IMG/VR virus record: IMGVR_UViG_3300028394_003336
DNA from: a virus
Length of the DNA stretch: 64,000 nucleotides
Direction: 5' to 3' (one strand)
Position numbers and translations under genes: made by a program. Each line of letters begins with the position of its first letter. Within the stretch, counting starts at the first letter, position 1. Below, piece after piece: positions 1 through 24,011 of this stretch. The notes beneath the pieces were generated by a model. It was not told the DNA's origin. It was given only the letters and a program-made list of their open reading frames with translations, and did not search any database.

Positions 1-1055
1 GCCACAACCCAAAAATCATAATCTTTTTCTGGAACACTTGAATAACCAACATCAATACAATGTTTGTATATTGTTGCAAAACTATCTTTCCATTCTTCTT
101 CATTATCAAAAGCATATGGACTTGGTGGATATTGTTTGTCTAAACAATGTTTGTCAATTGCTCTTCTTTCAAATAATAAGCCAGAATATTTTTCATAATC
201 TCTTAAAGTTCTAACAGTGCCAAATCCAAATGGTCCATCATGACCTTCTTGAACTTCACCATCCATACCAAATAATTTTCTATTAGTTAAATGAGAAACT
301 CTATTTTTTTCTCCCCAAGTCTTATCATCATCCCATTGTTTTGTTCTACCCTTACGAGTGTACTCATGGTAAACAACAGGAACATGTGGGTGGAATAAAT
401 CATAACCCCATGTGTATGCTCTTGCCGCAATTGAAATCTCTTCTCCGTGGAAATAGTATTCAGGATTGTGTTGAACCTCTACTGAGAATTCACCTAATGT
501 AAAACAGAAGTGAGCGGAATAGAATCTTGCTGTTACAGGTTTTGTCATTTCTCTCCAACCTGGAATTGTTTCAGGTAAAAAGAATACAGCACCTTCAGGA
601 ATAAATCTATCAAATGCCATTCTCCAAGCATCTTGTGCTCTACCTGCAGGGTCATTCTCGGGGTCAAAAGATGGGACATAACCCGTAAGTAGAGGTTTCT
701 TGTACCCATCCTTTTGTAACCCCTTTATCATTTTGATTAGAACATCATCCCAATCTTTAATAAATCTCATGTGAGAATCAATTTGAAGGGTATATGTTTC
801 ACCATCATAAAGTTGTTGTGTTAGGTTTCTCGCCCAACAAACTCCTTTAGCATCTTGATAAGGAATATCTAAGATTTTAAATCTTTTATCGGTTCTGAAT
901 TCATCTAAGTTATCAAAACCATCTGTTTCGCTAAATTGTCTTGCGATTGCAAAAACCAGATTCTTTGGTTTCTTAGCGTTGGCAATCATATCTTTTAATG
1001 TTGGGATTAACTGTGGGTCCCTGTAGGATGCAATTTGAATAAAAATTTTGCTCAT
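1..1055 (-). CDS. GT60-family (Skp1/polypeptide alpha-GlcNAc transferase-like) glycosyltransferase, 3' end beyond window
   Basis: Absent from the ORF track. Manual translation from ATG 1055 gives MSKIFIQIASYRDPQL...GVCWARN...TLQIDSHMRFIKDWDD...YYFHGEEISIAARAYTWGYDLFHP. IASYRD, WAR, QIDSHMRF-WD and FxGEE are hallmark GT60 (PF11397-type) motifs. Confidence 0.85.
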   Translation of the reverse strand, partial: MSKIFIQIASYRDPQLIPTLKDMIANAKKPKNLVFAIARQFSETDGFDNLDEFRTDKRFKILDIPYQDAKGVCWARNLTQQLYDGETYTLQIDSHMRFIKDWDDVLIKMIKGLQKDGYKKPLLTGYVPSFDPENDPAGRAQDAWRMAFDRFIPEGAVFFLPETIPGWREMTKPVTARFYSAHFCFTLGEFSVEVQHNPEYYFHGEEISIAARAYTWGYDLFHPHVPVVYHEYTRKGRTKQWDDDKTWGEKNRVSHLTNRKLFGMDGEVQEGHDGPFGFGTVRTLRDYEKYSGLLFERRAIDKHCLDKQYPPSPYAFDNEEEWKDSFATIYKHCIDVGYSSVPEKDYDFWVV

Positions 1056-1080
1056 TTATAGTATTTTGTCTTAAAAATAA

Positions 1081-1108
1081 AAAACCCTCCACAAAAGTAG
1101 AGGGTTTT
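1081..1108. terminator. Intrinsic terminator hairpin
   Basis: AAAACCCTC-cacaaaagta-GAGGGTTTT inverted repeat with A/T tails, lying between the 1131 and 1055 genes. Confidence 0.6.
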
Positions 1109-1130
1109 ATTTATATTATTTTTTTTATTT

Positions 1131-2375
1131 TTAAGTATGAGATGGTGTTGGTGATGGTGTATTTGTTGATGTAACTGTTTGTGTTGGTGTAACTGGTGGT
1201 GTTCCTGTTTGAGTTGGTGTTATACTTGGAGTTGGTGTTGGAGTTTGAGTTCGTGTTGGTGTAACGGTTGGAGTTACATTACAGAAAGAACTATATCCAA
1301 GAGTTGAACCTGTAGAACATCCTATACCACAATCATTATTAACAAAATAAACAATATTATCAAGTGCATAGAATCCTGTAGGGTTTCCTGTGTTAACACC
1401 TGTTGCGCCAGACCAAAACAAGGTAGAAGCACTAAACTGAACATTATTTGAATATATTGTTGCCGTACCCACACATCCACAAGCACTATCGGCACTTGAC
1501 AGATTAAAACAAACATTTGATTGAATATATCTAGCTATTGGTGTTGCCGAAGGAGTTACTGACGGTGTTGCCGTAATTGTTGCAGTTACTGATGGTGTTG
1601 GTGTTGAAGTTACTGTACTAGTAACTGTTGGAGTTGGTGTTACCAAGTTCAAACAACCATTATCATCTTTAGCAGATACTTCACCTAATCCACCTGTAAC
1701 TCTATACCAATTTGTACCATCGGAATAGTATCCATCAGGTGCTGGTATTGTAGTTGTAGCGTTTGTATATAATTCATCACCAACTTCAATTGATGGTCCT
1801 TGTGACCTTGTAGTATAAAGAGATGTTGTTGATGCCGCACAAGCTGCGTTTTGTGTATCACCTGAACCTAAAGCAAAACTATAGTTGAATGGTGTTGGTG
1901 TAGGAGTTGGTGTTTTTGTTACCGTTGGTGTTTGAGTTGCAGTCAACGTAGTTGTTGTAGTTGGTGTTGGAGTTGATGTTTCAGTAGGTGTTTGAGTAGC
2001 AGTTAATGTTGTTGTTGGTGTTTGAGTGTTAGTTTGCGTCTGAGTTTGTGTTTGAGTTTGTGTTTGACTTGGAGTGTTAGTCTGAGTCGGTGTTTGAGTA
2101 GTCGTAACCGATGGTGTTGGTGTAACGGTAGGTGTTGTTGTTGGAGTTGGAGTCGGTGTTGCAGTAGCATTTAATGGAGGAAAAGGTCCTTGATTAACAA
2201 GCAAAATTTGACTTGAAAATGCGGTTCCATAAGAACCATTTATTAACCAAATGTTTTTAGTTTCACTTGGGTCCAAAGGAACTTGGTATTCCCACATATT
2301 ATCGTCACATCTTCTATAACTAAAATTTGCTATTGAAGTGCCCGTGTTTGTTAGAGTATATTTGCTACATGCCAT
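1131..2375 (-). CDS. Thr/Pro-rich mucin-like protein with Cys-containing beta modules (putative virion surface/fibre protein)
   Basis: Three TPTPT/TQT tracts separating globular modules; TATTTAT motif upstream (2393-2399). Confidence 0.75.
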   Translation of the reverse strand: MACSKYTLTNTGTSIANFSYRRCDDNMWEYQVPLDPSETKNIWLINGSYGTAFSSQILLVNQGPFPPLNATATPTPTPTTTPTVTPTPSVTTTQTPTQTNTPSQTQTQTQTQTQTNTQTPTTTLTATQTPTETSTPTPTTTTTLTATQTPTVTKTPTPTPTPFNYSFALGSGDTQNAACAASTTSLYTTRSQGPSIEVGDELYTNATTTIPAPDGYYSDGTNWYRVTGGLGEVSAKDDNGCLNLVTPTPTVTSTVTSTPTPSVTATITATPSVTPSATPIARYIQSNVCFNLSSADSACGCVGTATIYSNNVQFSASTLFWSGATGVNTGNPTGFYALDNIVYFVNNDCGIGCSTGSTLGYSSFCNVTPTVTPTRTQTPTPTPSITPTQTGTPPVTPTQTVTSTNTPSPTPSHT

Positions 2376-2442
2376 CGTATTACTATTTTTTAATAAATAC
2401 TACGATTTATACTAATTTATTTCAGAAATTAAAAAAATGTTC

Positions 2443-3588
2443 TTAAGTACAAGAAAAAGGAGACGCAACACGAAGTCCGTTGGAACTCAATTGTAAAACT
2501 GAGTTTTCAAAACTATAAAATCCTGTCATATTAATTGTAACAGGTCCTGTACTATTATTATAAAATTGTGTGTTACTACTAAAACTTGGTGAATCTCCGT
2601 ATATTAAAGTACCATATAATTCAGAACAAGCATCATTAAAATTAGTTCCTGAATATGATGAAAATACATATCTAATATGAGTTGGTGTTGGAGTTACTGT
2701 TTGACTTGCAGTAATACTTGGTGTTGGTGTATTACTAGCAGTTATACTTGGAGTGAGTGTTGGAGTTAAAGTTGGAGTTGATGTTAAAGTTGTTGTAGTA
2801 GTTGGAGTTAAAGTTGGAGTTGGTGTACTTGTAGATGTTTGTGTTACAGTTGGAGTTGGTGTTACCAAATTATCACATCCGTTATTATATTTTGCAACAA
2901 TCTCACCTAATCCTCCTGACACAACATATAATATAGTTCCATCAGAATAATATCCGTTAGGTACTGGTGTAGTTACACTTGCGTTTGTATATAAAATTTC
3001 ACTAACCTCAAGAGTTGGTCCACCTGACCTTGAACCGTAAAATGATGTATCAGTTGAAGAACAAGCATCATTTGGTGTAAATCCGTAACCTAATTCAAAT
3101 TGATAATTAATTGGTGTTGGAGTTTGAGTTAATGTTGGTGTAGGTGTTGGCGTTTCAGAACTTGTTACCGTTGGTGTTGGCGTTTCAGAACTTGTTATAG
3201 ATGGTGTAGGTGTTGATGTTTGAGTTTCAGTAACCGATGGTGTTGGAGTTTGAGAACTTGTTATAGATGGTGTAGGTGTCGGAGTTTCACTACTTGTTGG
3301 TGTTGATGTTGGTAAACCTATTGTCGGACTTGCGGTTATTGTTGGAGTTGGTGTTAATGTAGGTGTCGGAGTTGGAGTAGATGATGGACACGGAACATCA
3401 ACAATATAAGAGTATGCGTATGTTGAGACATAACAATCGTAAGTTCCATACCAATAATCAGTCACATATGTAAACGGAAAAACTTGGTCTCCCAAACTAA
3501 TTGTTCCACCAGTACAAGGAAAAAAGGTAACGTTGGCCGTTTGACCACTTAAGTTATTACTAAAAATTGAAACACCACAATATGACAT
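2443..3588 (-). CDS. Thr/Pro-rich mucin-like protein, paralogue of 1131..2375
   Basis: TPTP/SSETPTP tracts; shares the GYYSDGT...GGLGE..AK..NGC.NLVTPTPT module; TATTTAT upstream (3594-3600). Confidence 0.75.
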   Translation of the reverse strand: MSYCGVSIFSNNLSGQTANVTFFPCTGGTISLGDQVFPFTYVTDYWYGTYDCYVSTYAYSYIVDVPCPSSTPTPTPTLTPTPTITASPTIGLPTSTPTSSETPTPTPSITSSQTPTPSVTETQTSTPTPSITSSETPTPTVTSSETPTPTPTLTQTPTPINYQFELGYGFTPNDACSSTDTSFYGSRSGGPTLEVSEILYTNASVTTPVPNGYYSDGTILYVVSGGLGEIVAKYNNGCDNLVTPTPTVTQTSTSTPTPTLTPTTTTTLTSTPTLTPTLTPSITASNTPTPSITASQTVTPTPTHIRYVFSSYSGTNFNDACSELYGTLIYGDSPSFSSNTQFYNNSTGPVTINMTGFYSFENSVLQLSSNGLRVASPFSCT

Positions 3589-3618
3589 AATATATAAATA
3601 CTTAAAAAAATTGTTTTA

Positions 3619-4176
3619 TTAAAAGCAAATACCAATATCAAGGACTTGTCCATTTGCGATATTAAATTGTACCCATCTTGCTCCGTCAGAAACTATGTTA
3701 CCAACAAAAGTAGGTGGAATTGTGCAAGAAGCGTTTCCATACACATAATCCCCAATTTGTAGAGCTTCAAATGGAGTTGCGCTATAAATTGCAACATTTG
3801 ATGGACCATATCCTGCATCACCACAAGCATCCTCAAAATATCCAGCACCCCACAAATTATATACAGGAATAAATGTTTGGGTAATACTTGGTGTTACAGT
3901 CGGTGTAGGGGTTGGAGTTTGAGTAATATTTGTTGGTGTAGGAGTTGGCGTAAATGATGGTGTTGGAGTTACAGAAGGACATAGTCCCACATAAACAACA
4001 GTTAAAGGAGCTCCGCAATCTTGAGCATATAAATCATAAGCACAAACATAATGAGAATCTAACGGGTCAATTGGTGTAACACTAACAATACCAGTACAAC
4101 CAGTCCAAGCATAGTACCCTTGTTGAACAGCATTATAGTTTGTTATCTTAAAATAGTTACAGTCTGTTGTATACAT
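3619..4176 (-). CDS. Thr/Pro-linker protein with Cys-containing modules
   Basis: Start moved to ATG 4176 (MYTTDC) because the ORF-track extension is only an alternative frame of the upstream gene's TP tail; carries a TPTP linker plus a related module. Confidence 0.7.
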   Translation of the reverse strand: MYTTDCNYFKITNYNAVQQGYYAWTGCTGIVSVTPIDPLDSHYVCAYDLYAQDCGAPLTVVYVGLCPSVTPTPSFTPTPTPTNITQTPTPTPTVTPSITQTFIPVYNLWGAGYFEDACGDAGYGPSNVAIYSATPFEALQIGDYVYGNASCTIPPTFVGNIVSDGARWVQFNIANGQVLDIGICF

Positions 4177-4187
4177 TTGAATTAAGT

Positions 4188-6194
4188 TTAAATTGGAGTT
4201 ACTGTTGGTGTTATTGTTGGAGTTGGTGTTGGGCAATTATACAGTTCATACCCCAAATCATTACAAGGTAGTGATAGGTATATTAAATCATTACAAGGTA
4301 ATGTAACATAGTATAAGTCATTATTAGGTATTACAATTCTACAGTTAGGACAATCAGGGTCTAATAATCCATATCTATTTTTAAGAATTCTGAAGTTATG
4401 TTTAATTTGAGATGCGTTAAGTGGTTCGAGATACATTCTAAAAGCACTAACGTCACCAATTAAACTTCCACCAAAAATTCCTTCAAGTTCTATATTTGTG
4501 GTTAATCCCGAATAAATTGTGTGGTCTAAATCATATGTTGTTAAACATTCTGGGTCTTGTTGATATACAATATCATCAACGGTCTCAGGACATCCTCCTG
4601 AAAAAGTTAAATTGTCATGTAAACCTTGTGTACCACCACCAACCGAAATATTATACCCAACACCAATTTGTCTTTCTTTTGGTGTGTTTAATAGTCTTGG
4701 TATAATCTCCTCAAAATCTTCCGCAACCATGAATAATCTACCGTTAACATAAAACTTCAATGTACCCAATCTATACTTTTCTTCTTCCGTCCACATGTCG
4801 TTAAACTTAACAACTTCTGTTGTTGCTGGGTCGTAAGGTTGTTCGTGTGTTAATGGAGGTTCAATAAGACTCACGCTATTATTTGCAGGTGTTGCTGTGA
4901 AAATTGTATCAACAATTAATCCTAACCCGCCTTTTTCATATAAATCACAAGTATCTAACCATTTGTTTCTTTGGAATACCGCATCAATCTGAACCCAATG
5001 TTCAACATTTGGATATGTTGTTTGAATACAATCGTGGAAAATTCCTCTTGTTGAGCACCACTCACTTATTGTAACGCCTGTTTGATAAGTTAAACCTGTA
5101 AGACAAGTTCCTGAATGTTCACAATGTCCTGTGATTCTATAAGTCTTAACACATAATCTTGGGTTTCCTGTATCACCACTCAATCTTAATGAAAGGGCGT
5201 TTGAAACATCGTCATATAATGGGTCGGTTTCAGGATATTTTACAGTAACAGTACAATTACAAGGACATCCACAATTGCAATTAGTAGATGTTCCACCTGA
5301 TTGTTGGTAAACATGTATACAACTATGTTCAGCTGTCTTACCTGTTTGTTGACACTCACAGGTGTGCATACAAGTTAAACCCGAAGTTACTCTTGTATAT
5401 CCTGTATCTTGTTTTGGACTTCCATCGGGATAATGGTAGAATTTATTCTCAGCTCTGGCCCCCATGTAAAAGAAGGTTCCTTTATTATTTGGGTATCTTT
5501 TATTTAATCCTGTATCAGTATTTCCTGTCCATCTATACTTCAACATGAATTCTGCTGTCCAGCCTAAAGAAACTCTCTGAGGAAAAACTTGATAATCATA
5601 TCCTGGTATTTTATAAAACCCTTGGAAAAATCCTCCGTTAAGTCTTGCAAAATACCCAACAGAATCCCCATTTGTTTGATAATTTAAATTATATGTGTAT
5701 GAGTCATCGTTCCATAATCTATTTGATGATGTTGTAAAACCTGTGATAGGGTGCATTTTCATTCTCCTATCGTATTTGTATCTACTGTAAGTGTCGGCTG
5801 AAGATGTATATAAACCTGTTGTAATTTCAATGGTTTCACCAGACATTTTTTTAGTCAATCCGTTATCAATACCTGTCAAACCAACATCACATAATTCAGT
5901 TACAACAGGACAAAAATTAGGGTCAACATAGTCTGGATTCCAATAATTTTCAGAAACAATAACATCATTATCAAAACTACAAGAATTGGTTTGACAAATT
6001 GTTGTTGCAGAATTATTGAAGTCAAATTTGAATGGCATTCTATTTCCATCATCTTCACCAATTAAAAATGGAGAAAATACAACCTCTTGGTCATAATCTT
6101 TTTCGTCTGATGCAAGGCAAATGTCCGTTATTTCATTAAACGGAATTATTCCCCATCTCCTAAAATTATATTGATTAATGTTTTGGTATGCCAT
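4188..6194 (-). CDS. Cys-rich LamG/concanavalin-like virion protein with C-terminal TP tail
   Basis: HWVQID, LKFYVNG and IGDVSAFRMY..PLN..QI pattern typical of LamG-like folds; Cys cluster; 3x10-aa repeat; TATTTAT upstream (6204-6210). Confidence 0.55.
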   Translation of the reverse strand: MAYQNINQYNFRRWGIIPFNEITDICLASDEKDYDQEVVFSPFLIGEDDGNRMPFKFDFNNSATTICQTNSCSFDNDVIVSENYWNPDYVDPNFCPVVTELCDVGLTGIDNGLTKKMSGETIEITTGLYTSSADTYSRYKYDRRMKMHPITGFTTSSNRLWNDDSYTYNLNYQTNGDSVGYFARLNGGFFQGFYKIPGYDYQVFPQRVSLGWTAEFMLKYRWTGNTDTGLNKRYPNNKGTFFYMGARAENKFYHYPDGSPKQDTGYTRVTSGLTCMHTCECQQTGKTAEHSCIHVYQQSGGTSTNCNCGCPCNCTVTVKYPETDPLYDDVSNALSLRLSGDTGNPRLCVKTYRITGHCEHSGTCLTGLTYQTGVTISEWCSTRGIFHDCIQTTYPNVEHWVQIDAVFQRNKWLDTCDLYEKGGLGLIVDTIFTATPANNSVSLIEPPLTHEQPYDPATTEVVKFNDMWTEEEKYRLGTLKFYVNGRLFMVAEDFEEIIPRLLNTPKERQIGVGYNISVGGGTQGLHDNLTFSGGCPETVDDIVYQQDPECLTTYDLDHTIYSGLTTNIELEGIFGGSLIGDVSAFRMYLEPLNASQIKHNFRILKNRYGLLDPDCPNCRIVIPNNDLYYVTLPCNDLIYLSLPCNDLGYELYNCPTPTPTITPTVTPI

Positions 6195-6203
6195 AAACTA
6201 ATG

Positions 6204-6230
6204 ATAAATACCTTGTATCAGAGTATTTAT
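6204..6230. promoter_or_regulatory. Back-to-back TATTTAT putative late promoters for divergent genes
   Basis: ATAAATA 6204-6210 (serves the minus-strand gene) and TATTTAT 6224-6230 (serves the plus-strand gene); the same motif precedes >20 genes in this window. Confidence 0.65.
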
Positions 6231-8955: not shown

Positions 8956-10167
8956 ATGTCTAAAATCAATGTACTAGTCGTACCCTCCGATAGAACTGGA
9001 GTTGGTAAATTTAGGTCAATAGACCCTCACATCTTTCTTCAAAACTTATATCCTGAAGATTTTCATATAGATATCGTATACGATGTTGTATATGATGATT
9101 TAGAATTCTTTAAAAAGTATCAAATTGTTTCTTTCCACAGAAGCATTGGTCCTGATTTTGAAAGAGCTAATCAGTTAATTCTTAAATTAAATGAACTTGG
9201 TATCGCCACTGTTGGTGATATTGATGATTATTGGATGCCAGGTAAAGAACATCCAATCCATGATGTTATCAGATTCAATAAAATCAATGAAAAAATTACA
9301 ACAAACTTAAAAATTGCAAAATACGTTTCAACAACAACATCATTATTTGCAGATGAGATAATGAAAATGAATAAAAATGTTGTGGTGTTTCCTAACGCAA
9401 TTAACCCAAAAGAATCTCAATTTAAAGAACCAACACCTGAATCAGATAGATTAAGGATTGGATGGTTAGGTGGTTCATCTCACTTACATGATTTACAATT
9501 ATTAGACCAATCATTCAGCAAGTTAGGTTCAATTAGTGATAAATTACAATATGTTCTTTGTGGATTTGATACAAGAGGAACTGTTACAGAAATTAATTCT
9601 CAAACAGGAGAACATGTTAAAAGAAATATCACACCTGAAGAAACTGTATGGGCATCATACGAAAAAATATTCACTCAAAAATACACAACTATTTCTGAAG
9701 ACTATAAAAAGTTTTTAGAAAAATACGTACAAGACTCTTATCCTAACGAAAATGATGAGGCATATATCAGAGTTTGGACTAGACCCGTACAATCATATGC
9801 AAAGAATTATTCAAAATTTGATGTATCTTTGGCACCAATCAAAAACCACATGTTTAATAGAATGAAATCTCAATTAAAAGTTATTGAGGCAGGTTTCTAT
9901 AAAAAAGCAATTATAGCGTCAAATGTTGGTCCATATACTTTAGACTTAAAACATTGTTTAGACCATGGTAATTTTGTTGACGGAAATGCTTTATTAGTTG
10001 ATGAAAATAGAAATCACTCTGATTGGGCTAAATTCATTGACAAATTGGTAAAAAATCCAAATATGGTAAAAGATATGGGAGAAAGATTATATGAGACCGT
10101 AAAGGACACATATGATTTAAATGTTGTAACAAAAGCAAGAGCAGAATTTTATAAATCAATCGTATGA
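8956..10167 (+). CDS. GT-B (GT4-like) glycosyltransferase
   Basis: GDIDDYW, RIGWLGGSSH and FDVSLAP...FNRMKSQLKVIEAG...IIASNVGPY motifs. Confidence 0.8.
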   Translation: MSKINVLVVPSDRTGVGKFRSIDPHIFLQNLYPEDFHIDIVYDVVYDDLEFFKKYQIVSFHRSIGPDFERANQLILKLNELGIATVGDIDDYWMPGKEHPIHDVIRFNKINEKITTNLKIAKYVSTTTSLFADEIMKMNKNVVVFPNAINPKESQFKEPTPESDRLRIGWLGGSSHLHDLQLLDQSFSKLGSISDKLQYVLCGFDTRGTVTEINSQTGEHVKRNITPEETVWASYEKIFTQKYTTISEDYKKFLEKYVQDSYPNENDEAYIRVWTRPVQSYAKNYSKFDVSLAPIKNHMFNRMKSQLKVIEAGFYKKAIIASNVGPYTLDLKHCLDHGNFVDGNALLVDENRNHSDWAKFIDKLVKNPNMVKDMGERLYETVKDTYDLNVVTKARAEFYKSIV

Positions 10168-10868
10168 TAAATAATGTACCACTAACCAAGTTTTTATTCT
10201 TAGACATTGAAACCGTAGGATGTGAATCCAATTGGGAAAATTTTAAGAAAAATAAAAAAGAACTTTCATTTCAATTTGAACACATTCAAGACAATCTTAG
10301 AAAAAGATTTCCTGAGGAATCTGACACACCTATTGAGCAATTGTTTGTTAATAGAGCCGCGTTAGTTCCTGAATTTTTAAAGATAGTTTGTGTTAGTGTT
10401 GCATTTGTTATGGATGACGGAACAGTTAAACTACAATCTTTTCATAGTGAAGATGAAGGTAAATTACTTCAAGATGTACAGAAATTATTAAATCGTACAG
10501 GGGATTTAGGGTTCTTCTTATGTGGACATAATGTTAAAGGATTTGATATCCCAACATTAGCTAAACGTATGATGATGTATGGATTAGAACCTCCAAAACT
10601 ATTACCAAGTTATGATACAAAACCTTGGGAGGTTAAGGCAATTGATACCAAAGACATATGGCAATATGGTGGATATGGTCAATTCGCATCTCTTGAATTA
10701 ATGTGTGTTTGTATGGGTGTTGAGTCATCTAAAAATACAGAAGTAACAGGAAATAGAGTTCATGAGGCGTATTGGATAGATAAAAATATTGAAGGTATTG
10801 TAAAATATTGTGAGAAAGATGTTGTGGTTTTGATAGAATTAATTAAAAAATTAAAACAATTAAAATGA
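10164..10868 (+). CDS. DEDDy 3'-5' exonuclease (PolB-exo-like, stand-alone)
   Basis: FLDIET (ExoI), GHNVKGFD (ExoII), YCEKD (ExoIII). Confidence 0.8.
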   Translation: MINNVPLTKFLFLDIETVGCESNWENFKKNKKELSFQFEHIQDNLRKRFPEESDTPIEQLFVNRAALVPEFLKIVCVSVAFVMDDGTVKLQSFHSEDEGKLLQDVQKLLNRTGDLGFFLCGHNVKGFDIPTLAKRMMMYGLEPPKLLPSYDTKPWEVKAIDTKDIWQYGGYGQFASLELMCVCMGVESSKNTEVTGNRVHEAYWIDKNIEGIVKYCEKDVVVLIELIKKLKQLK

Positions 10869-11494
10869 TGCAAGAAATTGACAAAGAAGAAGAATCAGAT
10901 TTATGGAAACAGGTCCAAGAACAATTTGAAAAATTAAAAATACAAACAGGTATTGAATCTGATGAAAATTATAAGAAAGAACTTGATGAAATACTTGGAT
11001 TAACTGATGAAGATTTTAAAGAAATTGACGAAAACACAAAGTTGTTATTATCAAGAAAAAATGTTCAAGTTCAGTTATTAGATAACCTTGCAGTTTATCC
11101 AAAATACGCTTATCCAACAGATTCTGGTTTTGATTTACACTCTACTATAGAATATACTTTACCATCTCTTGGTAGAGCAATAATTCCAACAGGAATTAAA
11201 GTATCTTTTGATGAAAGTTTGGAATTACAAATTAGACCTAAGAGTGGTTTAGCAATCAATCAAGGAATTACTGTTTTGAATACTCCTGGTACTGTGGATG
11301 TAGGATACACAGGTGAACTTAAGGTAATTGTTTTTAATACAAACAAAACTGATTTCACAATCACAAAAGGTATGAAAATTGCTCAAGCTGTTTTTGCACC
11401 AGTAATAAACGGTAGATATATTAACTTTCAAACAGTTAGTGAAGTAGAAGAAAAAGATAGAGGGGATAACGGTTTTGGCAGTACTGGTATTTAA
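10865..11494 (+). CDS. dut: Trimeric dUTPase with acidic N-terminal extension
   Basis: DSGFDL, RPKSG, GTVDVGYTGE, KIAQ and RGDNGFGSTG (motifs 1-5). Confidence 0.93.
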   Translation: MMQEIDKEEESDLWKQVQEQFEKLKIQTGIESDENYKKELDEILGLTDEDFKEIDENTKLLLSRKNVQVQLLDNLAVYPKYAYPTDSGFDLHSTIEYTLPSLGRAIIPTGIKVSFDESLELQIRPKSGLAINQGITVLNTPGTVDVGYTGELKVIVFNTNKTDFTITKGMKIAQAVFAPVINGRYINFQTVSEVEEKDRGDNGFGSTGI

Positions 11495-11508
11495 ATTAAA
11501 CTTACTAT

Positions 11509-11679
11509 ATGGGAAAGTATTACGAAAATTTAGAAACTTTAATAGAACTCATAAAAAAAATAGAAAAAAAGAATCTTTTAGCTGAGTTTATTTTGGACTG
11601 TGTTATTATTACAAAGGGAAATCCTGACAAAAGTGCACATGAAATAATAAAAGAAGCAAAGAAAAAACGACTCAAATAA
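11509..11679 (+). CDS. Small hypothetical protein (56 aa)
   Basis: Manual translation MGKYYENLETLIELIKK...KKKRLK*; fills the gap, and its stop overlaps the next ATG (TAATG). Confidence 0.55.
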   Translation: MGKYYENLETLIELIKKIEKKNLLAEFILDCVIITKGNPDKSAHEIIKEAKKKRLK

Positions 11680-13307
11680 TGTTAACAATAGCATATTCAA
11701 CAAGAGAACACAAACCAGAATTTATTGAATACCTGAAAAAAAGTTCAGGTTTTAAGAAAATTGAAGTTATTGAAAAAGTTAATAACGGTGAAAAGTCTTT
11801 GGCCAAATTATATAATGAAATTTTGTCTGAAGCAAAAACTGACATAATTGTTTTTTGTCATGACGACATTTATTTTGATACAACAGGATGGTATCATAAA
11901 TTAATGAAACATTTTGATAAATCTGATTACGGTATTATTGGAATGGCTGGTACAACAGATATGCCAGCAAGTGGTAAATGGTGGGAAGATAGAAAAAAAA
12001 TGATTGGGATTGTTAACCACGAAAATGGTGGAAAAAAATGGGAATCAAAATATTCTGAATCATTAAATAATAATATAGGTCAAACAATAATTGTTGACGG
12101 TTTATTCATTGCTGTTGATAAAAGAAAAATTAAAAAAACTTTTGATGAAGAATTTGAAGGGTTTCATTTTTATGATATTCCTTTTTGTTTTGAAAATCAT
12201 TTAGAAGGCGTTAAAATAGGCGTAATAACAAATATTAGAATTACTCATAAATCTATCGGTCAAACTAATGAACAATGGGAAAAAAATAGACAGTTATTTG
12301 AAAAAAAATATAAAGACAACCTTCCATTAAAACTTCCATTTGACCCACAAAAAAGACTTAAAATTTTAATTTCTTGTTTATTTTTTAGAACATTTACAGG
12401 TTCTGAATTATACGTTTATGAATTAGCAAAAAATTTATTAAGTCAAAATTGTGATGTTACTGTGATGTCTCAAATAGGAGGACCATTAACAGATATGGCA
12501 AAAAAGATTGGGATTAAGTGTATTACGTTTGAACAAGCACCAGGATTCAAACTTGGTGATGGTGTGTGGACTTTTGATGCTGGTAATGGACCACAAGTTT
12601 CAACGCCAAATATGATGTATAGGGTTTCAGATGTTAATTTTGATTTAATCCATATGCAACATAAACCTGTTGCGGAAAGAATGATTCAATTTTATCCTGA
12701 AATTGACAAAATATATTCAATTCATTCTGAGGTTATAGAATTAGAAGACCCAATTAAACACGAATCAATTAAAAAATATATTGCAATTAGACCCGAGATT
12801 AAGGAATACATAATTAATAATTTTGAAATTCCTGAAAAAGATATTGAAGTTATTTATAATCCTGTGGATAATGAAAAATTCAAATCAAGACCTTCAAAGG
12901 TTCAAAATGCTGTTTTATTTGTCGGTACCATAGATTATTTGAGAAGAGAAACAATTATGGATTTAATTGATTACACAAAAGATAATAATAAAGAACTTTG
13001 GTTAATGGGTGAGGATAAACAAAATTATCTCATATCAATTTTAACACAGCCACACGTTAAACATTTTAAACCAGGTTGGAACGTTGAAAAACTAATTAAT
13101 GAATGTGATGAAACTGCAGGAATACAATTAGGAAGAACAACAATTGAAAGTTGGTTATGTGGAAAACCGAGCTGGATTTATAAGGTAAATTCATATGGAA
13201 ATATTGAGTCCAAAGAAAAATTTGACCCACCTACTGATTTAGAAAAATACTATGCAAACAATGTTGTCAAACAAATCAAAGAACAATATTTAAAGATTCT
13301 CTCATGA
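11679..13307 (+). CDS. Bifunctional glycosyltransferase (GT-A/GT2-like + GT-B/GT4-like fusion)
   Basis: N-terminal IVFCHDD...VDGLF...FHFYD; C-terminal TGSELYVYELAK.L...VIYNPVD...LFVGTI. Confidence 0.8.
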   Translation: MLTIAYSTREHKPEFIEYLKKSSGFKKIEVIEKVNNGEKSLAKLYNEILSEAKTDIIVFCHDDIYFDTTGWYHKLMKHFDKSDYGIIGMAGTTDMPASGKWWEDRKKMIGIVNHENGGKKWESKYSESLNNNIGQTIIVDGLFIAVDKRKIKKTFDEEFEGFHFYDIPFCFENHLEGVKIGVITNIRITHKSIGQTNEQWEKNRQLFEKKYKDNLPLKLPFDPQKRLKILISCLFFRTFTGSELYVYELAKNLLSQNCDVTVMSQIGGPLTDMAKKIGIKCITFEQAPGFKLGDGVWTFDAGNGPQVSTPNMMYRVSDVNFDLIHMQHKPVAERMIQFYPEIDKIYSIHSEVIELEDPIKHESIKKYIAIRPEIKEYIINNFEIPEKDIEVIYNPVDNEKFKSRPSKVQNAVLFVGTIDYLRRETIMDLIDYTKDNNKELWLMGEDKQNYLISILTQPHVKHFKPGWNVEKLINECDETAGIQLGRTTIESWLCGKPSWIYKVNSYGNIESKEKFDPPTDLEKYYANNVVKQIKEQYLKILS

Positions 13308-14014
13308 TTATTTTAACAACAACATATAATTGTGCTCCGTATGTTGAAAGGAGTCTACTGAGTATTATGTCTCAGAGATTCAAAGATTTTACTTGTTACA
13401 TACTTGATGATGTGTCTACTGACAACACAAAAGAAATTGTAAAAAAAACAATAGAGGGTGATTCAAGATTTATACTTGTTGAAAATCACACTAAGTTTTA
13501 CCAACCAGGAAATTACGACCAAGTAATAAATTGGAGAGCAATTTCTGGTGATGAAATTTGTGTTGAGGTTGATGGTGATGATTGGTTACCAAACTCAAAT
13601 GTTTTTGACTTAATCAATGAAACATATAAAGACCCTGAAGTTTGGATGACAAGTGGTTCATTCAAATATCACGATGGAAGACCAGGGTTTGCTAATCCCC
13701 CTACTCACTTTACTAACGTTAGAAAACAAGCCTTCACTCTTTCTCATCTTAGAACTTGGAAATCTTGGTTATGGAAAAAAATCAAAGAAGAAGATTTAAG
13801 AGATGAAAATGGTAATTACTGGAGCGTTGCTGGTGACTTATCATTCATGTTTCCAATGTTTGAAATGTCAGGACAAGAACACTATAGATTTTTACCAAAC
13901 ATAAATTACATTTACAACGAATCTAACCCAATTAATGACCATAAAGTTAACATGTCTAATGTTACTCAAACGGTAAATAAAATAAGAAATAAAACACCAT
14001 ATACAAAATTATGA
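13304..14014 (+). CDS. GT2 glycosyltransferase
   Basis: TTYN, DDVSTDNT and VDGDDW (DxD). Confidence 0.85.
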   Translation: MIILTTTYNCAPYVERSLLSIMSQRFKDFTCYILDDVSTDNTKEIVKKTIEGDSRFILVENHTKFYQPGNYDQVINWRAISGDEICVEVDGDDWLPNSNVFDLINETYKDPEVWMTSGSFKYHDGRPGFANPPTHFTNVRKQAFTLSHLRTWKSWLWKKIKEEDLRDENGNYWSVAGDLSFMFPMFEMSGQEHYRFLPNINYIYNESNPINDHKVNMSNVTQTVNKIRNKTPYTKL

Positions 14015-14658
14015 GTTTTCATTCAATCGTTGAATCAATAATATTTTATAGAAATTCAAAAAACAAAATAAATAATATCTTGCACATTGGTGCATGTTTA
14101 GGAGAAGAATTATCTTTTTATAAAGAATTAAATCCAGAAAAAATTTATTGGTTTGAACCAAACCCAAAATTATTAGAACAGTTAAAATATAATGTAACTA
14201 ATCAATCATTTGAAAGTTTAGTATTTCCATACGCGGTTAGTAATAAAAAAGGTACTGCGGAATTTAACATTATTGAAAATACTAAAAAAACAAATCCTGG
14301 ATGTTCATCATTACAAAATTTAAAAGTTCATGCAGAATTATATCAAGACATTACCAAGGTTGATACCTGTATTGTTAATACAATTAACATTGATGAATTT
14401 TTACAAGAAAATAATTTAGAAACAAATTTTGATTTAGTAAGTTTAGATACTCAAGGTCACGACTATGAAATTTTAAGTTCAAGCGAACTTATTTTTAATA
14501 GTAAAATAATTGTGATTGAAACGGCTAAAGTAGAACTCTATGAAGGCCAAAAAATAGATGTTGAAATTGAAGAATTTTTAAATTCTAAAGGGTATAGTAA
14601 ATACTACTACCATGAATTCCATTCTACATGGGGAGATACATTATATGTTAAAAATTAA
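14011..14658 (+). CDS. FkbM-family methyltransferase
   Basis: HIGACLG, FEPNP, AVSN and LDTQGHDYEIL. Confidence 0.85.
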   Translation: MSFHSIVESIIFYRNSKNKINNILHIGACLGEELSFYKELNPEKIYWFEPNPKLLEQLKYNVTNQSFESLVFPYAVSNKKGTAEFNIIENTKKTNPGCSSLQNLKVHAELYQDITKVDTCIVNTINIDEFLQENNLETNFDLVSLDTQGHDYEILSSSELIFNSKIIVIETAKVELYEGQKIDVEIEEFLNSKGYSKYYYHEFHSTWGDTLYVKN

Positions 14659-14663
14659 TACTA

Positions 14664-15437
14664 ATGGAAAACGTATCTTGTATATTAACAATACATAATA
14701 AAGATTTTTTAATTGAGCGGGTATGTAAGTCTTTGTTAAATAATTTATCTAACAAAACTAATCAACTTATTATTGTTTTTGATGGATGTACTGATAATTC
14801 TATCCCAATAGTTAAAAACACATTAAAAAATATAACAAAATTAAAAATTGATTATGTTTACACTGATAACGTTTTTGAGACTAAAGCAAACAATGCGGGG
14901 TTAAAAATCGTTGATAACGATTACGCATTATTAATTCAAGATGATATGGTTGTTAATGAAAAAGATTTTGACATTAGAATGTTAAAACCATATCAAACAT
15001 TTAATGATGTTTTTGCGGTAACCTCATTTATTGCACACAACAATATATATAATGAACAAATTAAAGAAATTAATTATATTGATATGGCAAATAAAAAAGA
15101 TTCGTCTAGGGATATTTTTTATGCCCGAGAATATGGAAATAGAGGACCTTTAATGTACAACTATCAAGATGTGGTAAAACTTAATTATTTGGACGAATGG
15201 TTCTCTCCACAAAATTATGATGATATGGATATCTCAATTAGGGCATTTAAAGAATTAAAAAAAGTATCAGGATTATATTGGATAGATTATACATCAGACC
15301 CAAGATGGGGTTCTACTCGTCAAAAAAATCATGATTTACATCATAATTTAGTTAAGGTAAATTCTCAAAAAATTTTAGAAAGGCATAAAGATTTACTTTA
15401 TGGTGATAAATTTATTGAAAATAGAGAATTAAAATGA
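14664..15437 (+). CDS. GT2 glycosyltransferase
   Basis: IHNK, DGCTDNS, NAGL, IQDD and DDMD.S.RA. Confidence 0.8.
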   Translation: MENVSCILTIHNKDFLIERVCKSLLNNLSNKTNQLIIVFDGCTDNSIPIVKNTLKNITKLKIDYVYTDNVFETKANNAGLKIVDNDYALLIQDDMVVNEKDFDIRMLKPYQTFNDVFAVTSFIAHNNIYNEQIKEINYIDMANKKDSSRDIFYAREYGNRGPLMYNYQDVVKLNYLDEWFSPQNYDDMDISIRAFKELKKVSGLYWIDYTSDPRWGSTRQKNHDLHHNLVKVNSQKILERHKDLLYGDKFIENRELK

Positions 15438-16030
15438 AAATAAAACCGTCAAACGATACCGAATGGAGACAACAAAATGGTGATTATACATACAGAATTA
15501 ATTATCCATTAACGAACAATTCAATTGTTGTTGATTTGGGGGCAAGACATGGACATTGGTCAGAATTAATTAGAAAGAAATATTCACCAAAAATATATTG
15601 TTTTGAAGTTGTTAGTGAATTTTGTAATCAATTAAAAAATTTAAATTATAAAACATTTTGTATTGCGGTTTCTGATAAAAAAGAAAAAGTTAAATTAGGA
15701 ATTGTCCAATCAGAAGCATCATTATTTTTTAAAGAATCTACATTTGAAAGTGAATCAATTCCCGCAAATGAAATATTTGAAATTATTAATGAAGAACACA
15801 TTGATTTAATGAAAATAAATGTTGAAGGTGCTGAGTATTCAATTTTAAAAAATTTAATTGAGACTAATTCAATAATTAAAATAAAAAATATACAAGTACA
15901 ATTTCATTTATTTAATGACGAAGAAAATTCTGATTATGATTTAATATCTAAAGAATTATCTAAAACACATAAACTAACTTGGAGATTTCCATTTGTGTGG
16001 GAAAATTGGGAATTAAAATATGAAATTTAA
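15434..16030 (+). CDS. FkbM-family methyltransferase
   Basis: VDLGARHG, CFE, IDLMKINVEGAEY and QVQFH. Confidence 0.85.
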   Translation: MKIKPSNDTEWRQQNGDYTYRINYPLTNNSIVVDLGARHGHWSELIRKKYSPKIYCFEVVSEFCNQLKNLNYKTFCIAVSDKKEKVKLGIVQSEASLFFKESTFESESIPANEIFEIINEEHIDLMKINVEGAEYSILKNLIETNSIIKIKNIQVQFHLFNDEENSDYDLISKELSKTHKLTWRFPFVWENWELKYEI

Positions 16031-16715
16031 TATATCTTTTTTTACAGACGAAAATTTTAGATTCAGAGAAAATCTATTATTAGAACGATATCAAAATATG
16101 AAATTTGATAACGTATTTGTGCACACATCAGAAGAAATAAGAAATACTGATTTTTACAAAGAATTTAAACATATTTTAGACCAACCAAAGGGCGCAGGAT
16201 ATTGTTTATGGAAACCATACATTATATTAGAAGATTTAAATAAAATGGATGATGGCGATGTTTTAGTATATTTGGATGCCGCGGATGATTTAGTGGGTGA
16301 TGGTTTACATCATATTAAAATTGCCATGGATAAAAGAGATTATTACATCAGTAATTGGCGTGGAGCAAGAAATAAGCAAAGAGAAAAAACAAAAAAAGAT
16401 TGTTTTGTTCTTATGGATTGTGACAATGAGTTTTTTCATAACTTCCCTCAAGTAGAAGCTGGATTTGTAATTTTTAAAAAAAATCAAGATAATGTGAATT
16501 TTATCAATCAATGGTTAAATTATTGTAAAAACGAAAATATATTGACTGATAAACCAAATGAACATGGGAATAATCTACCTGAATTCAAAAATCATTTATA
16601 CGACCAAAGTGTTTTAACCAATTTAGTTTTAAAAAATAATATAAAACTTTCATATGTTTTAAAAGATAGTGTTGCATATAATGTAGTCCCACCTTCAAAC
16701 ACCCATAACTTGTAA
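16020..16715 (+). CDS. Putative GT-A-fold glycosyltransferase
   Basis: LWKPYII, YLDA(A)D, EAGF and H.YDQSVL pattern; position within the glycan cluster. Confidence 0.55.
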   Translation: MKFNISFFTDENFRFRENLLLERYQNMKFDNVFVHTSEEIRNTDFYKEFKHILDQPKGAGYCLWKPYIILEDLNKMDDGDVLVYLDAADDLVGDGLHHIKIAMDKRDYYISNWRGARNKQREKTKKDCFVLMDCDNEFFHNFPQVEAGFVIFKKNQDNVNFINQWLNYCKNENILTDKPNEHGNNLPEFKNHLYDQSVLTNLVLKNNIKLSYVLKDSVAYNVVPPSNTHNL

Positions 16716-16749
16716 TTTACATTTAAACACTATTATTTATTCTTAGTAA

Positions 16750-17577
16750 ATGGGAAATTCAATAACCGCAAATTTAATGGGTGGTCTTGGTAATCAATTA
16801 TTTGAAGCCGCTCACGCATTAGCACAAGGTTGGAAGCACAATAGAGAAACTGTATTCCTTCCACATTCATGGACACCAGGTCAAGGTAGAGGTGCCGAAA
16901 ATTACATTAACAATGTATTCAGAAATCTAAAGTTTGTTGAAAGAGTTGAAGACACAACTACAGTAAACGAAGGACATTTTGAATATTCAGAAGTTAATCC
17001 AGTAGAAGGAGATACCGCATTTCACGGATACTTTCAATCAACAAAAAATTGGTTTGGATTTGACGAAAAAATTAGAGAAATCTTCCAGCCACCCGCAGAA
17101 CTTGTAGAAGAGTTCATGGGAAAATACCCTCAACTATCTCAACCAAACACATTATCACTTCACGTTAGAAGAAGTGAGTATCTTCAGTTCCCTGAAATAC
17201 ACCCTACAATCAGCATAGAATACATTCAAGAGGCTTTAAAAGTTATTGGTGAATATTCTACCGTTTTTGTATTCAGTGACGACCACGACTTTGTAAGAGA
17301 GAATTTAAACTTCCCTTCAGTTATTTTTGTTAACGAACCTGAAGATTACAGAGAATTATGGTTAATGGGGTTATGTCAAAATCATATCATATCAAACTCC
17401 ACATTTTCATGGTGGGGAGTTTTCTTAAATAAAAAACTAAACAAAAAAATCGTTGCACCATCTCGTTGGTTTGGTCCACGAGGTCCTGAGGCAAAAGATA
17501 TCTACGAATCATATTGGAACATAATTCCTTGTGATTGGATTGAGGGCGGTAAATTAATGCCGATTAAAAATGATTAA
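16750..17577 (+). CDS. GT11 alpha-1,2-fucosyltransferase-like
   Basis: GGLGNQLF, GYFQS, LHVRR.EY, FSDD and IISNSTFSWW are canonical GT11 motifs; TATTTAT upstream (16734-16740). Confidence 0.9.
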   Translation: MGNSITANLMGGLGNQLFEAAHALAQGWKHNRETVFLPHSWTPGQGRGAENYINNVFRNLKFVERVEDTTTVNEGHFEYSEVNPVEGDTAFHGYFQSTKNWFGFDEKIREIFQPPAELVEEFMGKYPQLSQPNTLSLHVRRSEYLQFPEIHPTISIEYIQEALKVIGEYSTVFVFSDDHDFVRENLNFPSVIFVNEPEDYRELWLMGLCQNHIISNSTFSWWGVFLNKKLNKKIVAPSRWFGPRGPEAKDIYESYWNIIPCDWIEGGKLMPIKND

Positions 17578-18196
17578 TACAAATCCTAATAACAAAACAT
17601 GTGACATAGCACACATCAAAAGTATTATAACAATTAACAATTATGATTTAATTGGTGATGTTATTGAATTTGGAACCTTTACAGGTGGAAGTACAAAAAC
17701 TTTATCCTTAACATTTCCTAATAAAACAATATTCACAATTGACCATTTTCAGGGGTTAGAACAAACCAATAAGAACGTACCAAGTGATAGTGATTGGATT
17801 GAAAGAGCATTTGCATTAGACAATCCATTATATGTTGATAACCACAACATACCCAAATCTATTGATGAAGTTAGAGAAAGATTCATGGGTCATGATAACA
17901 TCAAAATGATTATATCCGATGTTCACGACTTAACAGAACCATCTGATTATGGTATTGGTAAAATTTCTGTTTGTAATTTAGATGTTGATATCTATGAACC
18001 AGCAGTATCTGCATTAGAGTTTTTAACCAAGTGCGAATGGTCTGAAGTATTCATCAGATTTGATGATTGGCACGGTGGTGAACCAGAATATGACCAACAT
18101 GAAAGATTGGCATTTGTAGAATGGATTGAAAAGTATAACTATAAATTTAACATTACTCATGGTGGATACATCGGTGGTGTTTATGTAAAACGATAA
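17570..18196 (+). CDS. TylF/MycF-like sugar O-methyltransferase
   Basis: GDVIEFGTFTGGS, DHFQGL, LDVDIYE and FDDW. Confidence 0.75.
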   Translation: MINTNPNNKTCDIAHIKSIITINNYDLIGDVIEFGTFTGGSTKTLSLTFPNKTIFTIDHFQGLEQTNKNVPSDSDWIERAFALDNPLYVDNHNIPKSIDEVRERFMGHDNIKMIISDVHDLTEPSDYGIGKISVCNLDVDIYEPAVSALEFLTKCEWSEVFIRFDDWHGGEPEYDQHERLAFVEWIEKYNYKFNITHGGYIGGVYVKR

Positions 18197-18198
18197 AA

Positions 18199-19032
18199 AT
18201 GGAAAAAAAACAAATTAGAAAAGTATCAGATTGGTGGGGTGAATACGATTGTTCATCAAACCGCAACATGCCAAAACACATTCAATGGCTATCAAGAGAC
18301 ACTGAAACACCACACGAAGTGAGTGTTTATGTTGATAACTACATCAAAGATTGGGGATTCAATGACCCAAAAAGAGATAAGATTGGATGGTTATTAGAAT
18401 CGCCTCAAATGAATGAAGGTACCATCAAATATCTCGTTGACAACATTGACATGACAAGGGAACATTTCAAGTGGATTTTCACTTGTATGGATAGTCTTAT
18501 TGAATTAGGTGCTCCATTTGTATACAACATTTCAAATGCAGCCCCTTGGATTTGGGAAAAAAACAGAGCAATTCACCCTAAAACTAAATTGGTATCAATG
18601 ATTGCATCTAATAAAGGATGGTTACGTGGGCACCAAAATAGATTACAATGGGTTGAAAAATTAAAAGATAAAGTTGACTTATTTGGTTCAGGAAGACCTA
18701 ATCAATTGAATGATAAAGAAGATGGTTTAAAAGATTACATGTTCTCAGTTGCAATTGAGAATGATAATTCGGATACTTACTTCACAGAAAAATTAACCGA
18801 TTGTTTTGCGATGGGTACAGTTCCAGTTTATTATGGTTCAAGAAAAGTTGTTGAAAAATATTTTGACCCAACAGGAGTTATCTTCTTAGAAGATGATGCT
18901 GATTTATCAACATTAACATTAGAAAAATATCAATCATTAATGCCAGCAATTGAAAGGAATTTCATAGCTGCGAATAACCTACCTGTATCGGAAGACTACA
19001 TGTGGGAAAATTATTTAAAAAACTTATTTTAA
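18199..19032 (+). CDS. GT10 (alpha-1,3-fucosyltransferase)-like glycosyltransferase
   Basis: LLESP, IASNK, VDLFG and YMFSVAIEN...YFTEKL.DCF..GTVPVYYG. Confidence 0.8.
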   Translation: MEKKQIRKVSDWWGEYDCSSNRNMPKHIQWLSRDTETPHEVSVYVDNYIKDWGFNDPKRDKIGWLLESPQMNEGTIKYLVDNIDMTREHFKWIFTCMDSLIELGAPFVYNISNAAPWIWEKNRAIHPKTKLVSMIASNKGWLRGHQNRLQWVEKLKDKVDLFGSGRPNQLNDKEDGLKDYMFSVAIENDNSDTYFTEKLTDCFAMGTVPVYYGSRKVVEKYFDPTGVIFLEDDADLSTLTLEKYQSLMPAIERNFIAANNLPVSEDYMWENYLKNLF

Positions 19033-19033
19033 T

Positions 19034-20940: not shown

Positions 20941-20941
20941 A

Positions 20942-21322: not shown

Positions 21323-21339
21323 ATAACAAAAAAATATTA

Positions 21340-22956: not shown

Positions 22957-22957
22957 T

Positions 22958-24010: not shown

Positions 24011-24011
24011 T

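Follow-up and report, generated by a model that had tools for sequence, protein, structure and literature searches.

Does a phage with a relative of the initiating enzymes of mucin-type O-glycans also encode proteins on which such glycans could be built? The question is raised by a 64,000-nucleotide stretch of viral DNA (IMG/VR virus record IMGVR_UViG_3300028394_003336; hereafter the window, meaning the whole stretch analysed), at whose start a glycosyltransferase gene of family GT60 follows four co-oriented genes with tracts rich in threonine and proline (TP tracts). The source is an uncultured freshwater jumbo phage, a tailed phage of the T4-like superfamily. Virion glycosylation is known from very few cases in tailed phages, where it influences immune recognition, stability and adsorption. 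A preliminary description of the window had read the two sets of genes as an initiating enzyme and its acceptors. The comparisons and structural models reported here make it on balance probable that the GT60 enzyme directly glycosylates the TP linkers of fibre or decoration proteins of the phage, and the recurrence of the GT60/TP pairing across phages and bacteria points to the linkers as its probable targets.

The GT60 enzyme

The minus-strand open reading frame (ORF) beginning with the ATG at position 1055 belongs to CAZy family GT60 by hidden Markov model, motif and predicted fold alike. Both the frame and the motifs on which the family had first been proposed (QIASYRD, CWARN, LQIDSHMRFIKDWDD and YYFHGEEIS) are found in the translated window, and the assignment is confirmed by the Pfam model PF11397 'GlcNAc' (219.4 bits, cut-off 21, E 1.3e-64); phrog_24687 'glycosyltransferase' also matches, at 1e-143. 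Full-length copies in relatives, such as the ORF at L005:9998-11263, have 421 amino acids (aa) and a PF11397 score of 225.5 bits. Among 49 aligned GT60 sequences, D92 and H94 (QxDSH), W101-D102 and H229 (HEYTR) are invariant and Q90 and S93 of QxDSH almost invariant, and the DxH-type motif QxDSH..WD is kept across five phage lineages and 40 cellular representatives. The family comprises 4,437 clusters (50% identity) across the protein universe, and its NCBI label is merely 'GlcNAc-transferase family protein', GlcNAc being N-acetylglucosamine.

The AlphaFold2 (AF2) model of the full-length enzyme has a GT-A fold and a predicted local distance difference test score (pLDDT) of 95.5. The top ~40 Foldseek ranks are all polypeptide N-acetylgalactosamine-transferases (ppGalNAc-Ts), with a best E of ~4e-10; in VIA comparisons these enzymes reach Z 21.1 (ppGalNAc-T1, the best solved match, with a root-mean-square deviation of 3.7 Å over 279 residues) and 19.7, and the remaining GT-A enzymes Z 16.6 or less. 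Identity to the solved ppGalNAc-T structures is merely 12-14%, and a phmmer search of the PDB sequences retrieved no GT60 structure. Neither a transmembrane (TM)-like segment nor a signal peptide was predicted in the enzyme. A C-terminal beta domain of ~100 aa (residues ~325-421; L005:10970-11263), which falls past the window start and beyond the Pfam model, is conserved in phage and bacterial GT60s, is duplicated in lineage L114, and may be the part that binds the acceptor. Giant proteins with two to four tandem GT60 domains also exist; P0122 (2461 aa), which has four, is named a Tpa1-like prolyl 4-hydroxylase/peroxiredoxin fusion by the Joint Genome Institute (JGI).

GT60 and TP tracts in phages

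A first GT60 search of IMG/VR returned 340 related stretches, the majority from one abundant freshwater jumbo-phage clade. Close relatives of the window number in the hundreds in that database and, since several are complete genomes of 317-326 kb, they represent a clade of abundant jumbo phages. Whole-genome statements about this clade are drawn from its complete IMG/VR members (e.g. G001 and G002), and the close-relative set consists of 80 IMG/VR relatives with a GT60 85-97% identical to that of the window. Throughout these 80, TP ORFs lie directly upstream of GT60 and in the same orientation, and none lies downstream. TP genes again adjoin GT60 in more distant members of the clade (59-68% GT60 identity), and at L118 and L120, where the GT60 is 38% identical, a 402-aa TP protein stops 17 nucleotides (nt) before the GT60 ATG and has a module with the same PxGYY motif. 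In the clade of the Xanthomonas jumbo phage XacN1, the baseplate wedge genes are directly followed by the gene of a 3313-aa protein with TP tracts, which lies ~9 kb away from the GT60 operon. In the complete relative G002 (L331:1-5417(-)) a TP protein has a virion-structural-like gene on one side and, on the other, a collagen-like tail fibre longer than 1800 aa.

TP tracts were counted in each genome as matches to a TPTPTP-coding pattern, with the same pattern read backwards as a control. All six GT60-positive large phage genomes tested carry the pattern (29 matches in XacN1, 26 in Xoo-sp13, 19 in CM1 and, in three complete members of the window clade, 5, 19 and 19); as the control gave 0-1 matches in these genomes against 5-29 for the forward pattern, the tracts are not a composition effect. 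The pattern is absent from 11 large phages without PF11397 (RsoM2USA, the Xanthomonas jumbo phage XbC2, Phosso, a Vibrio jumbo phage, pEa_SNUABM_47, 121Q, two huge uncultured phages, a Flavobacterium phage, Mel-JY01 and S-CAM7), save for a single match in LR756511, whose control gave two. RsoM2USA is the nearest relative of XacN1, yet is negative for both GT60 and tracts. Ten of 12 additional GT60-positive IMG/VR contigs have tracts. The reverse test, on 27 contigs of at least 40 kb selected solely for a (TP)5 tract, found PF11397 in eight, which cover at least four GT60 lineages; among isolated phages, PF11397 was found in 4 of 50,697. The co-occurrence and synteny that the preliminary description had put forward as a check on its proposal thus hold in several lineages of phages and also in genomes of bacteria.

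XacN1 ORF232-237 (L083:41049-49901) form a TP array of another type, with no sequence relationship to that of the window: six tandem paralogues with a common N-terminal domain of ~205 aa followed by TP tracts. ORF325 of this phage likewise carries TP tracts.

Bacterial loci with GT60

GT60 relatives were found on 374 stretches from bacterial genome bins. The density of TP ORFs per 10 kb is 0.68 up to 1 kb from GT60 and 0.09 at 5-8 kb, a difference of about seven-fold. The gene directly upstream of GT60 encodes, in Gemmatimonadaceae (L264:7215-7940, L269:7314-7955), a PqqD domain followed by a long Thr/Pro tail; in Vicinamibacterales, a TP-FN3 protein with a twin-arginine translocation (Tat) signal; and in Opitutaceae, an FN3-TP-BNR protein. 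In a crAss-like prophage region on a contig (L274) of a Saprospiraceae metagenome-assembled genome (MAG), GT60 has crAss-type muzzle (tail) proteins with TP tracts on either side and a GT32-like enzyme nearby. The bacterial proteins adjacent to GT60 share no globular domain, and the TP tract is their sole common feature. The Gemmatimonadaceae pair may represent a glycosylated peptide-chaperone system, or one resembling those of ribosomally synthesised and post-translationally modified peptides (RiPPs).

The bacterial-bin GT60s closest to the clade of the window (67-70% identical) come mostly from Saprospiraceae MAGs (L250-L257, Saprospiraceae and Bacteroidia contigs). They are a lead to a host among Bacteroidota, or else phage contigs that were mis-binned.

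The TP proteins and their modules

A six-frame scan of the window recovered five ORFs with Thr/Pro tracts and no more, each of them on the minus strand: A to D directly upstream of GT60, and E at the distant position where the preliminary description had placed a fifth such gene (Table 1). Its statement that the four upstream genes carry such tracts is correct for all four, but in D the tract is limited to 17 C-terminal residues. Threonine and proline make up 16-42% of the five products, reaching 35-42% in A, B and E; proline is about as abundant as threonine in the tracts, which range from 17 to 142 residues and are encoded by imperfect DNA tandem repeats with a period of 6-102 nt. No TM-like segment was found in A-E, and no TP tract in the major head protein in the six-frame scan. 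The number and length of TP genes vary widely among relatives with GT60s 85-97% identical. Orthologues of gene C measure 184-190 aa in many relatives, and its start is most likely the ATG at 4176, the position having been chosen as in those relatives. Orthologues of protein D reach 1786 aa, with many more tracts; D itself gave no match in Pfam and PHROG, and a LamG/ConA-like resemblance serves as a lead only.

For the module survey, 196 TP ORFs from the window and from fetched phage loci, mostly those of the 80 relatives, were split at their tracts into 485 globular pieces. The pieces of the window fall into six families: the three N-terminal modules of A, B and C, which are conserved and mutually distinct, the body of D, and two families of small modules. 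The latter, with 112 and 101 copies, can be aligned with each other and share the pattern A-C...T-I-Y-G...F-Y...G-Y-Y-S-x-G. The AF2 model of the ~76-aa Cys-bounded module is a small beta domain (pLDDT 91.9) for which the comparison with solved structures gave nothing convincing (Foldseek E above 2, VIA Z 3.8 or less). In structure it resembles only uncharacterised phage proteins, either from uncultured phages or from phages of Cellulophaga and Nonlabens, and every sequence homologue is an unnamed protein from metagenomes. A polyomavirus VP1 profile matched it marginally (E 0.003) and was judged spurious.

Pfam searches of A-E and of many large neighbouring ORFs gave no match, and neither did a tblastn search with protein A against 50,697 phage records with the low-complexity filter on. 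Matches of the TP proteins to phrog_15511 and phrog_38031 were treated as low-complexity because the alignments are confined to the tracts. The possibility that the TP ORFs are wrong-frame artefacts was rejected; no ORF at these loci is longer, and the globular modules they encode are conserved and predicted to fold well.

On the present sequence evidence A-E are most likely virion fibre or decoration proteins. The context that points to the virion comprises a motif shared with head genes (TATTTAT, see below), the block that E heads, the tail-fibre, baseplate and muzzle neighbours of TP genes in relatives, and the LamG-like lead for D.

Transcription signals and the GT60 operon

The preliminary description had GT60 immediately downstream of the TP genes, which is literally so; between them, however, stands a conserved terminator, and GT60 belongs to a separate operon. 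The terminator-like hairpin between gene A and GT60 is kept in 68 of 71 relatives, in which the stems differ and yet still pair. The heptamer TATTTAT occurs 41 times in the window (both strands), about 22 copies sitting 11-36 nt before a gene start. It precedes A, B, D and E as well as the protease, portal and other head-block genes, with 24, 12 and 20 nt from its first letter to the start codon in genes A, B and E; among the positions with a copy upstream are 41334, 44664, 36374, 39960, 16750(+) and 25584(+). For this phage clade TATTTAT is a candidate for a promoter element of the late type. It was preferred to the T4-type late promoter TATAAATA, which was dropped because its 15 copies against 9.8 expected are no enrichment. 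Since the terminator is conserved and GT60 has no TATTTAT, the TP genes and GT60 are not a simple operon; the distance of ~25 nt from hairpin to GT60 implies either that transcription of the TP genes continues past the hairpin into GT60 at a reduced level or that the GT60 promoter lies upstream of the hairpin.

In relatives the GT60 operon consists of GT60, a GT25-like gene, a gene for an unknown protein of 293 aa, an HtrL/YibB+GT2 gene and a gene for 141 aa, with overlapping stops and starts, and is followed after a short gap by the gene for a family-B DNA polymerase; the genes after GT60 itself lie outside the window. In XacN1 the order is GT60, a carbamoyltransferase, two genes (~286 and 246 aa) and HtrL/YibB, with a DNA polymerase nearby. 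A set of GT60, two unannotated genes and HtrL/YibB therefore recurs in two clades with GT60s 46-49% identical, the middle pair being matched by size and position only.

The glycan-building island and the window context

The glycan cluster that had been described at 9-25 kb is present as a large island of soluble enzymes (Table 1). It includes at least four GT2-type enzymes, with a fifth GT2-like domain on 11679-13307, methyltransferases of the FkbM (two) and TylF (one) families, and short-chain dehydrogenases/reductases (SDRs) as sugar-nucleotide enzymes; genes for PhoH, a dUTPase/dCTP-deaminase-like protein and an exonuclease are scattered within it. No TM-like segments were found in its glycosyltransferases and methyltransferases. 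The island may contribute to the glycan that GT60 would start. The two SDR genes (19034-20940(+)), which would serve to make a 6-deoxy or L-sugar, adjoin GT10 and GT11, and their products score far under the cut-offs of the NCBIfam models for GMD, GDP-fucose synthase and GME.

The window has a guanine plus cytosine content of ~31%. Its terminase is at most 28% identical to any protein in the 50,697 phage records, and a megablast search of positions 1-6200 against the same records returned zero matches. It also encodes an FtsH-like ATP-dependent protease of 680 aa (52921-54963(+); phrog_4871, E 1.8e-243). A 512-aa protein at L005:19298-20836(-) combines a complete Fe/Mn superoxide dismutase with ~270 additional residues.

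Table 1. Features of the 64,000-nt window
Feature	Position	Strand	Remarks
GT60 (PF11397) glycosyltransferase	3..1055	-	ATG at 1055; first 351 of ~421 codons; ORF truncated by window start
Terminator-like hairpin and T-run between gene A and GT60	1081..1108	-	12 pairs, 5 of them GC; ~25 nt before GT60 ATG
TP protein A, 414 aa	1131..2375	-	N-terminal module, two small Cys modules, four Thr/Pro tracts (one C-terminal); T+P 37%
TP protein B, 381 aa	2443..3588	-	N-terminal module, 100-aa TP tract, Cys module, 67-aa TP tract, C-terminal module
TP protein C, 185 aa	3619..4176	-	N-terminal module, 40-aa TP tract, Cys module
Protein D, 668 aa	4188..6194	-	Large globular part, LPCNDL repeats, 17-residue C-terminal TP tract
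Copies of the ~76-aa Cys-bounded module	2872-3099, 1650-1874, 3622-3864, 1281-1532, 2446-2670	-	
TATTTAT promoter-like motif ahead of gene D	6204..6210	-	
Soluble glycan enzyme island	8956..25565	+	GT2-type, GT4/GT1-like, GT11, GT10, two FkbM, TylF, two SDR, DUF6165
Major head protein	36447-38258	-	Window ORF
Head protease	40612-41334	-	Window ORF
Portal	42811-44664	-	Window ORF
Large terminase	44702-46462	-	Window ORF
TP protein E, 279 aa	50146..50985	-	142-aa TP tract; heads late block into terminase, portal, protease and major head protein

Proposed mechanism and alternative explanations

In the mechanism proposed here, GT60 would act as a soluble cytoplasmic polypeptide glycosyltransferase, placing the first sugar on the TP linkers while the proteins are being synthesised in the infected cell. 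By family precedent this sugar would probably be an alpha-linked N-acetylhexosamine taken from a uridine diphosphate (UDP)-sugar. The acceptors would be the beads-on-a-string proteins A-E and further ones elsewhere in the genome, built from conserved N-terminal modules, a variable count of Cys-bounded beta modules of ~75 aa and TP linkers of 17-142 residues. The genes right after GT60 (GT25-like, unknown protein, HtrL/YibB+GT2) would extend the glycan, to which the island at 9-25 kb may add. In favour of this mechanism count the PF11397 match and the ppGalNAc-T-like fold of the enzyme, the synteny and co-occurrence of GT60 with TP tracts, the operon shared with XacN1, the PAS-positive glycoproteins (periodic acid-Schiff reaction) in XacN1 virions, and the late or virion context of the TP genes. 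Shielding, adhesion and grazer evasion as roles of such a coat are speculation.

Several observations weigh against direct glycosylation of the linkers. A conserved terminator divides the TP genes from GT60, which is not preceded by TATTTAT, and none of A-E has a structural PHROG annotation. The co-occurrence counts are uncorrected for phylogeny and represent perhaps five lineages. GT60 occurs without tracts in one complete 61-kb phage and one fragment, and tracts occur independently of GT60: among five viral records selected for (TP)5 with an estimated completeness of at least 90%, four have no GT60. The majority of the TP arrays in the XacN1 clade (e.g. ORF232-237) lie ~90 kb from GT60. Lastly, XacN1 virions have glycosylated protein bands, but these are unassigned, and the paper that reports them (PMC5852040) names neither the glycoproteins, the glycosyltransferase family nor TP tracts.

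Part of this evidence would also fit a GT60 operon aimed at other targets, such as host envelope glycans or lipopolysaccharide (LPS), a capsid protein or a host protein, with the TP tracts as plain flexible linkers and the adjacency due to a shared hypervariable accessory island. The terminator and the different promoter class that part the two gene sets are in line with this, as are the HtrL/YibB, GT25, GT9 and GT11 families, typical of LPS loci, and the TP linkers that many phages have without GT60. Such targets would nevertheless leave unexplained why the pairing appears in lineages of 25-40% identity and again in bacterial settings that are unrelated and share only the TP tract, and why co-occurrence in large phages is all-or-none. 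No flippase, polymerase, initiating phosphoglycosyl transferase or membrane protein is found among the glycan genes of the window and, as regards the capsid, the major head protein is free of TP tracts. This explanation is considered unlikely.

A closer variant keeps the same system with a different linkage: a prolyl 4-hydroxylase (P4H) of phage or host would act on the tract prolines, and GT60 would then add GlcNAc to the resulting hydroxyproline (Hyp), in parallel with the cytoplasmic Skp1 pathway (PhyA, then Gnt1) of Dictyostelium and Toxoplasma. Like Gnt1 the phage GT60 is soluble and cytoplasmic, the tracts are equally rich in proline and threonine, the complete relatives G001 and G002 have three PF13640 2OG-Fe(II) oxygenase genes each, and the JGI name of P0122, with its four GT60 repeats, refers to a Tpa1-like proline 4-hydroxylase fusion. 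Against these stand XacN1, which has GT60 and TP tracts and no PF13640 match; G002, whose oxygenase genes lie tens of kb from GT60, none adjoining it; and the window, where no oxygenase was found among the ORFs scanned. PF13640 is moreover a broad family, common in aquatic phages. A linkage through Hyp is accordingly judged quite improbable.

The weakest alternative, glycosylation of phage DNA as a base hypermodification against restriction, in the manner of the glucosyl-hydroxymethylcytosine (hmC) of T4, could draw on the DNA polymerase gene that the GT60 operon adjoins in both clades, on the dUTPase/dCTP-deaminase-like gene within the glycan island and on the frequency of DNA-modifying enzymes among phage glycosyltransferases (reviewed in PMC12619734), but it is highly improbable: the nearest solved folds are protein-modifying ppGalNAc-Ts, the association with TP tracts is left unexplained, the single ThyA-family gene per genome in G001, G002 and XacN1 leaves no hydroxymethylase candidate in a search that covered ThyA-like paralogues and not other modified-base routes, and the ThyA of G001 is a canonical thymidylate synthase (TIGR03284, 311 bits against a cut-off of 108). 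The 'moraphage' jumbo-phage paper cited here (PMC12619734) has no evident connection to the clade of the window and was used for general remarks on glycosyltransferases only.

Returning to direct glycosylation of the TP linkers, a wider generalisation is offered tentatively, as possible rather than probable: prokaryotic and phage GT60s may perform a widespread cytoplasmic mucin-type O-glycosylation of Thr/Pro linkers, phages carrying a mobile enzyme-substrate cassette that coats fibres, muzzle and decoration proteins with methylated or fucosylated glycans, and bacteria modifying proteins of the PqqD, FN3 and BNR types. If true, a family with a generic name would gain a concrete function, and the frequent Thr/Pro linkers of aquatic phages a possible one, many of these 'PT linkers' being glycan carriers instead of passive spacers; the roots of eukaryotic mucin-type O-glycosylation (GT60/GT27) would lie in bacteria and their viruses.

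Comparison with known systems

The protist GT60s, Dictyostelium GntB (pp-alphaGlcNAcT2) and Trypanosoma cruzi OGNT, have the same PF11397 domain and DxH-type motif as the phage enzyme, and start mucin-type O-glycans on threonines of Thr/Pro-rich repeats, the presumed phage acceptors being TPTPT, PTVT and PSVT. The phage repeats appear to resemble the PTVT-type spacers of Dictyostelium glycoproteins. These two protist enzymes are type II membrane proteins of the Golgi that act in the secretory pathway, whereas the phage enzyme, whose activity is predicted from sequence, has no TM segment and an extra C-terminal beta domain of ~100 aa. Gnt1 of Dictyostelium and Toxoplasma is a cytoplasmic soluble GT60 that places GlcNAc on a Hyp of Skp1, extended thereafter by galactose and fucose. 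The phage genome similarly has further glycosyltransferases, including GT11/GT10 fucosyltransferase-like and GT2 enzymes, and P4H-like oxygenases occur in close relatives; unlike the Gnt1 pathway, which modifies one Hyp on one protein, the phage offers hundreds of potential repeat sites, and XacN1 lacks a PF13640 gene. The GT27 polypeptide GalNAc-transferases of animals and Toxoplasma provide the closest solved structures and share the order of a GT-A domain followed by a C-terminal non-catalytic domain (of ricin-type lectin kind in GT27), but belong to another CAZy family and are 12-14% identical.

Among phages a close counterpart is XacN1, a cultured relative whose virion mass-spectrometry data are deposited as ProteomeXchange PXD008065. 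Its ORF334 is a GT60 46-49% identical to those of the window clade, within the same set of GT60, two small genes and HtrL/YibB, and differs in the carbamoyltransferase inserted after GT60 and in TP proteins that have no BLAST-detectable module in common with those of the window. Its virions show at least two glycoprotein bands positive in the periodic acid-Schiff (PAS) reaction, and two annotated glycosyltransferases, including the ORF334 homologue, were suggested as makers of the glycoproteins (PMC5852040). The preliminary description knew of no GT60-plus-mucin-array system in a tailed phage. The literature search found no paper in which GT60 or PF11397 is connected with phages or with TP tracts, so that this claim stands as to the link itself, but it must be qualified in that the XacN1 paper had already named the homologue and reported PAS-positive virions.

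In mycobacteriophage virions, according to a review, it is the subunits of capsid and tail tube that bear glycans, at their C-termini (Freeman et al. 2023, as cited in PMC12619734). Phage-encoded glycosyltransferases and virion proteins made in the cytoplasm are common to those phages and, as proposed here, to the present one; in the latter, by contrast, the head protein is free of tracts, and the glycans would sit on long linkers inside separate modular proteins. Giant viruses (chlorovirus, mimivirus) likewise encode many soluble glycosyltransferases, sugar-nucleotide enzymes and methyltransferases. Their machinery is independent of host secretory glycosylation, and chlorovirus glycans are N-linked to the capsid protein; they differ from the present phage in the domain of their hosts and in their glycosyltransferase families. 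If the proposed mechanism is true, the chemistry and architecture would differ from these cases, with a mucin-type initiating enzyme and dedicated, hypervariable repeat substrates, and such a system would be common.

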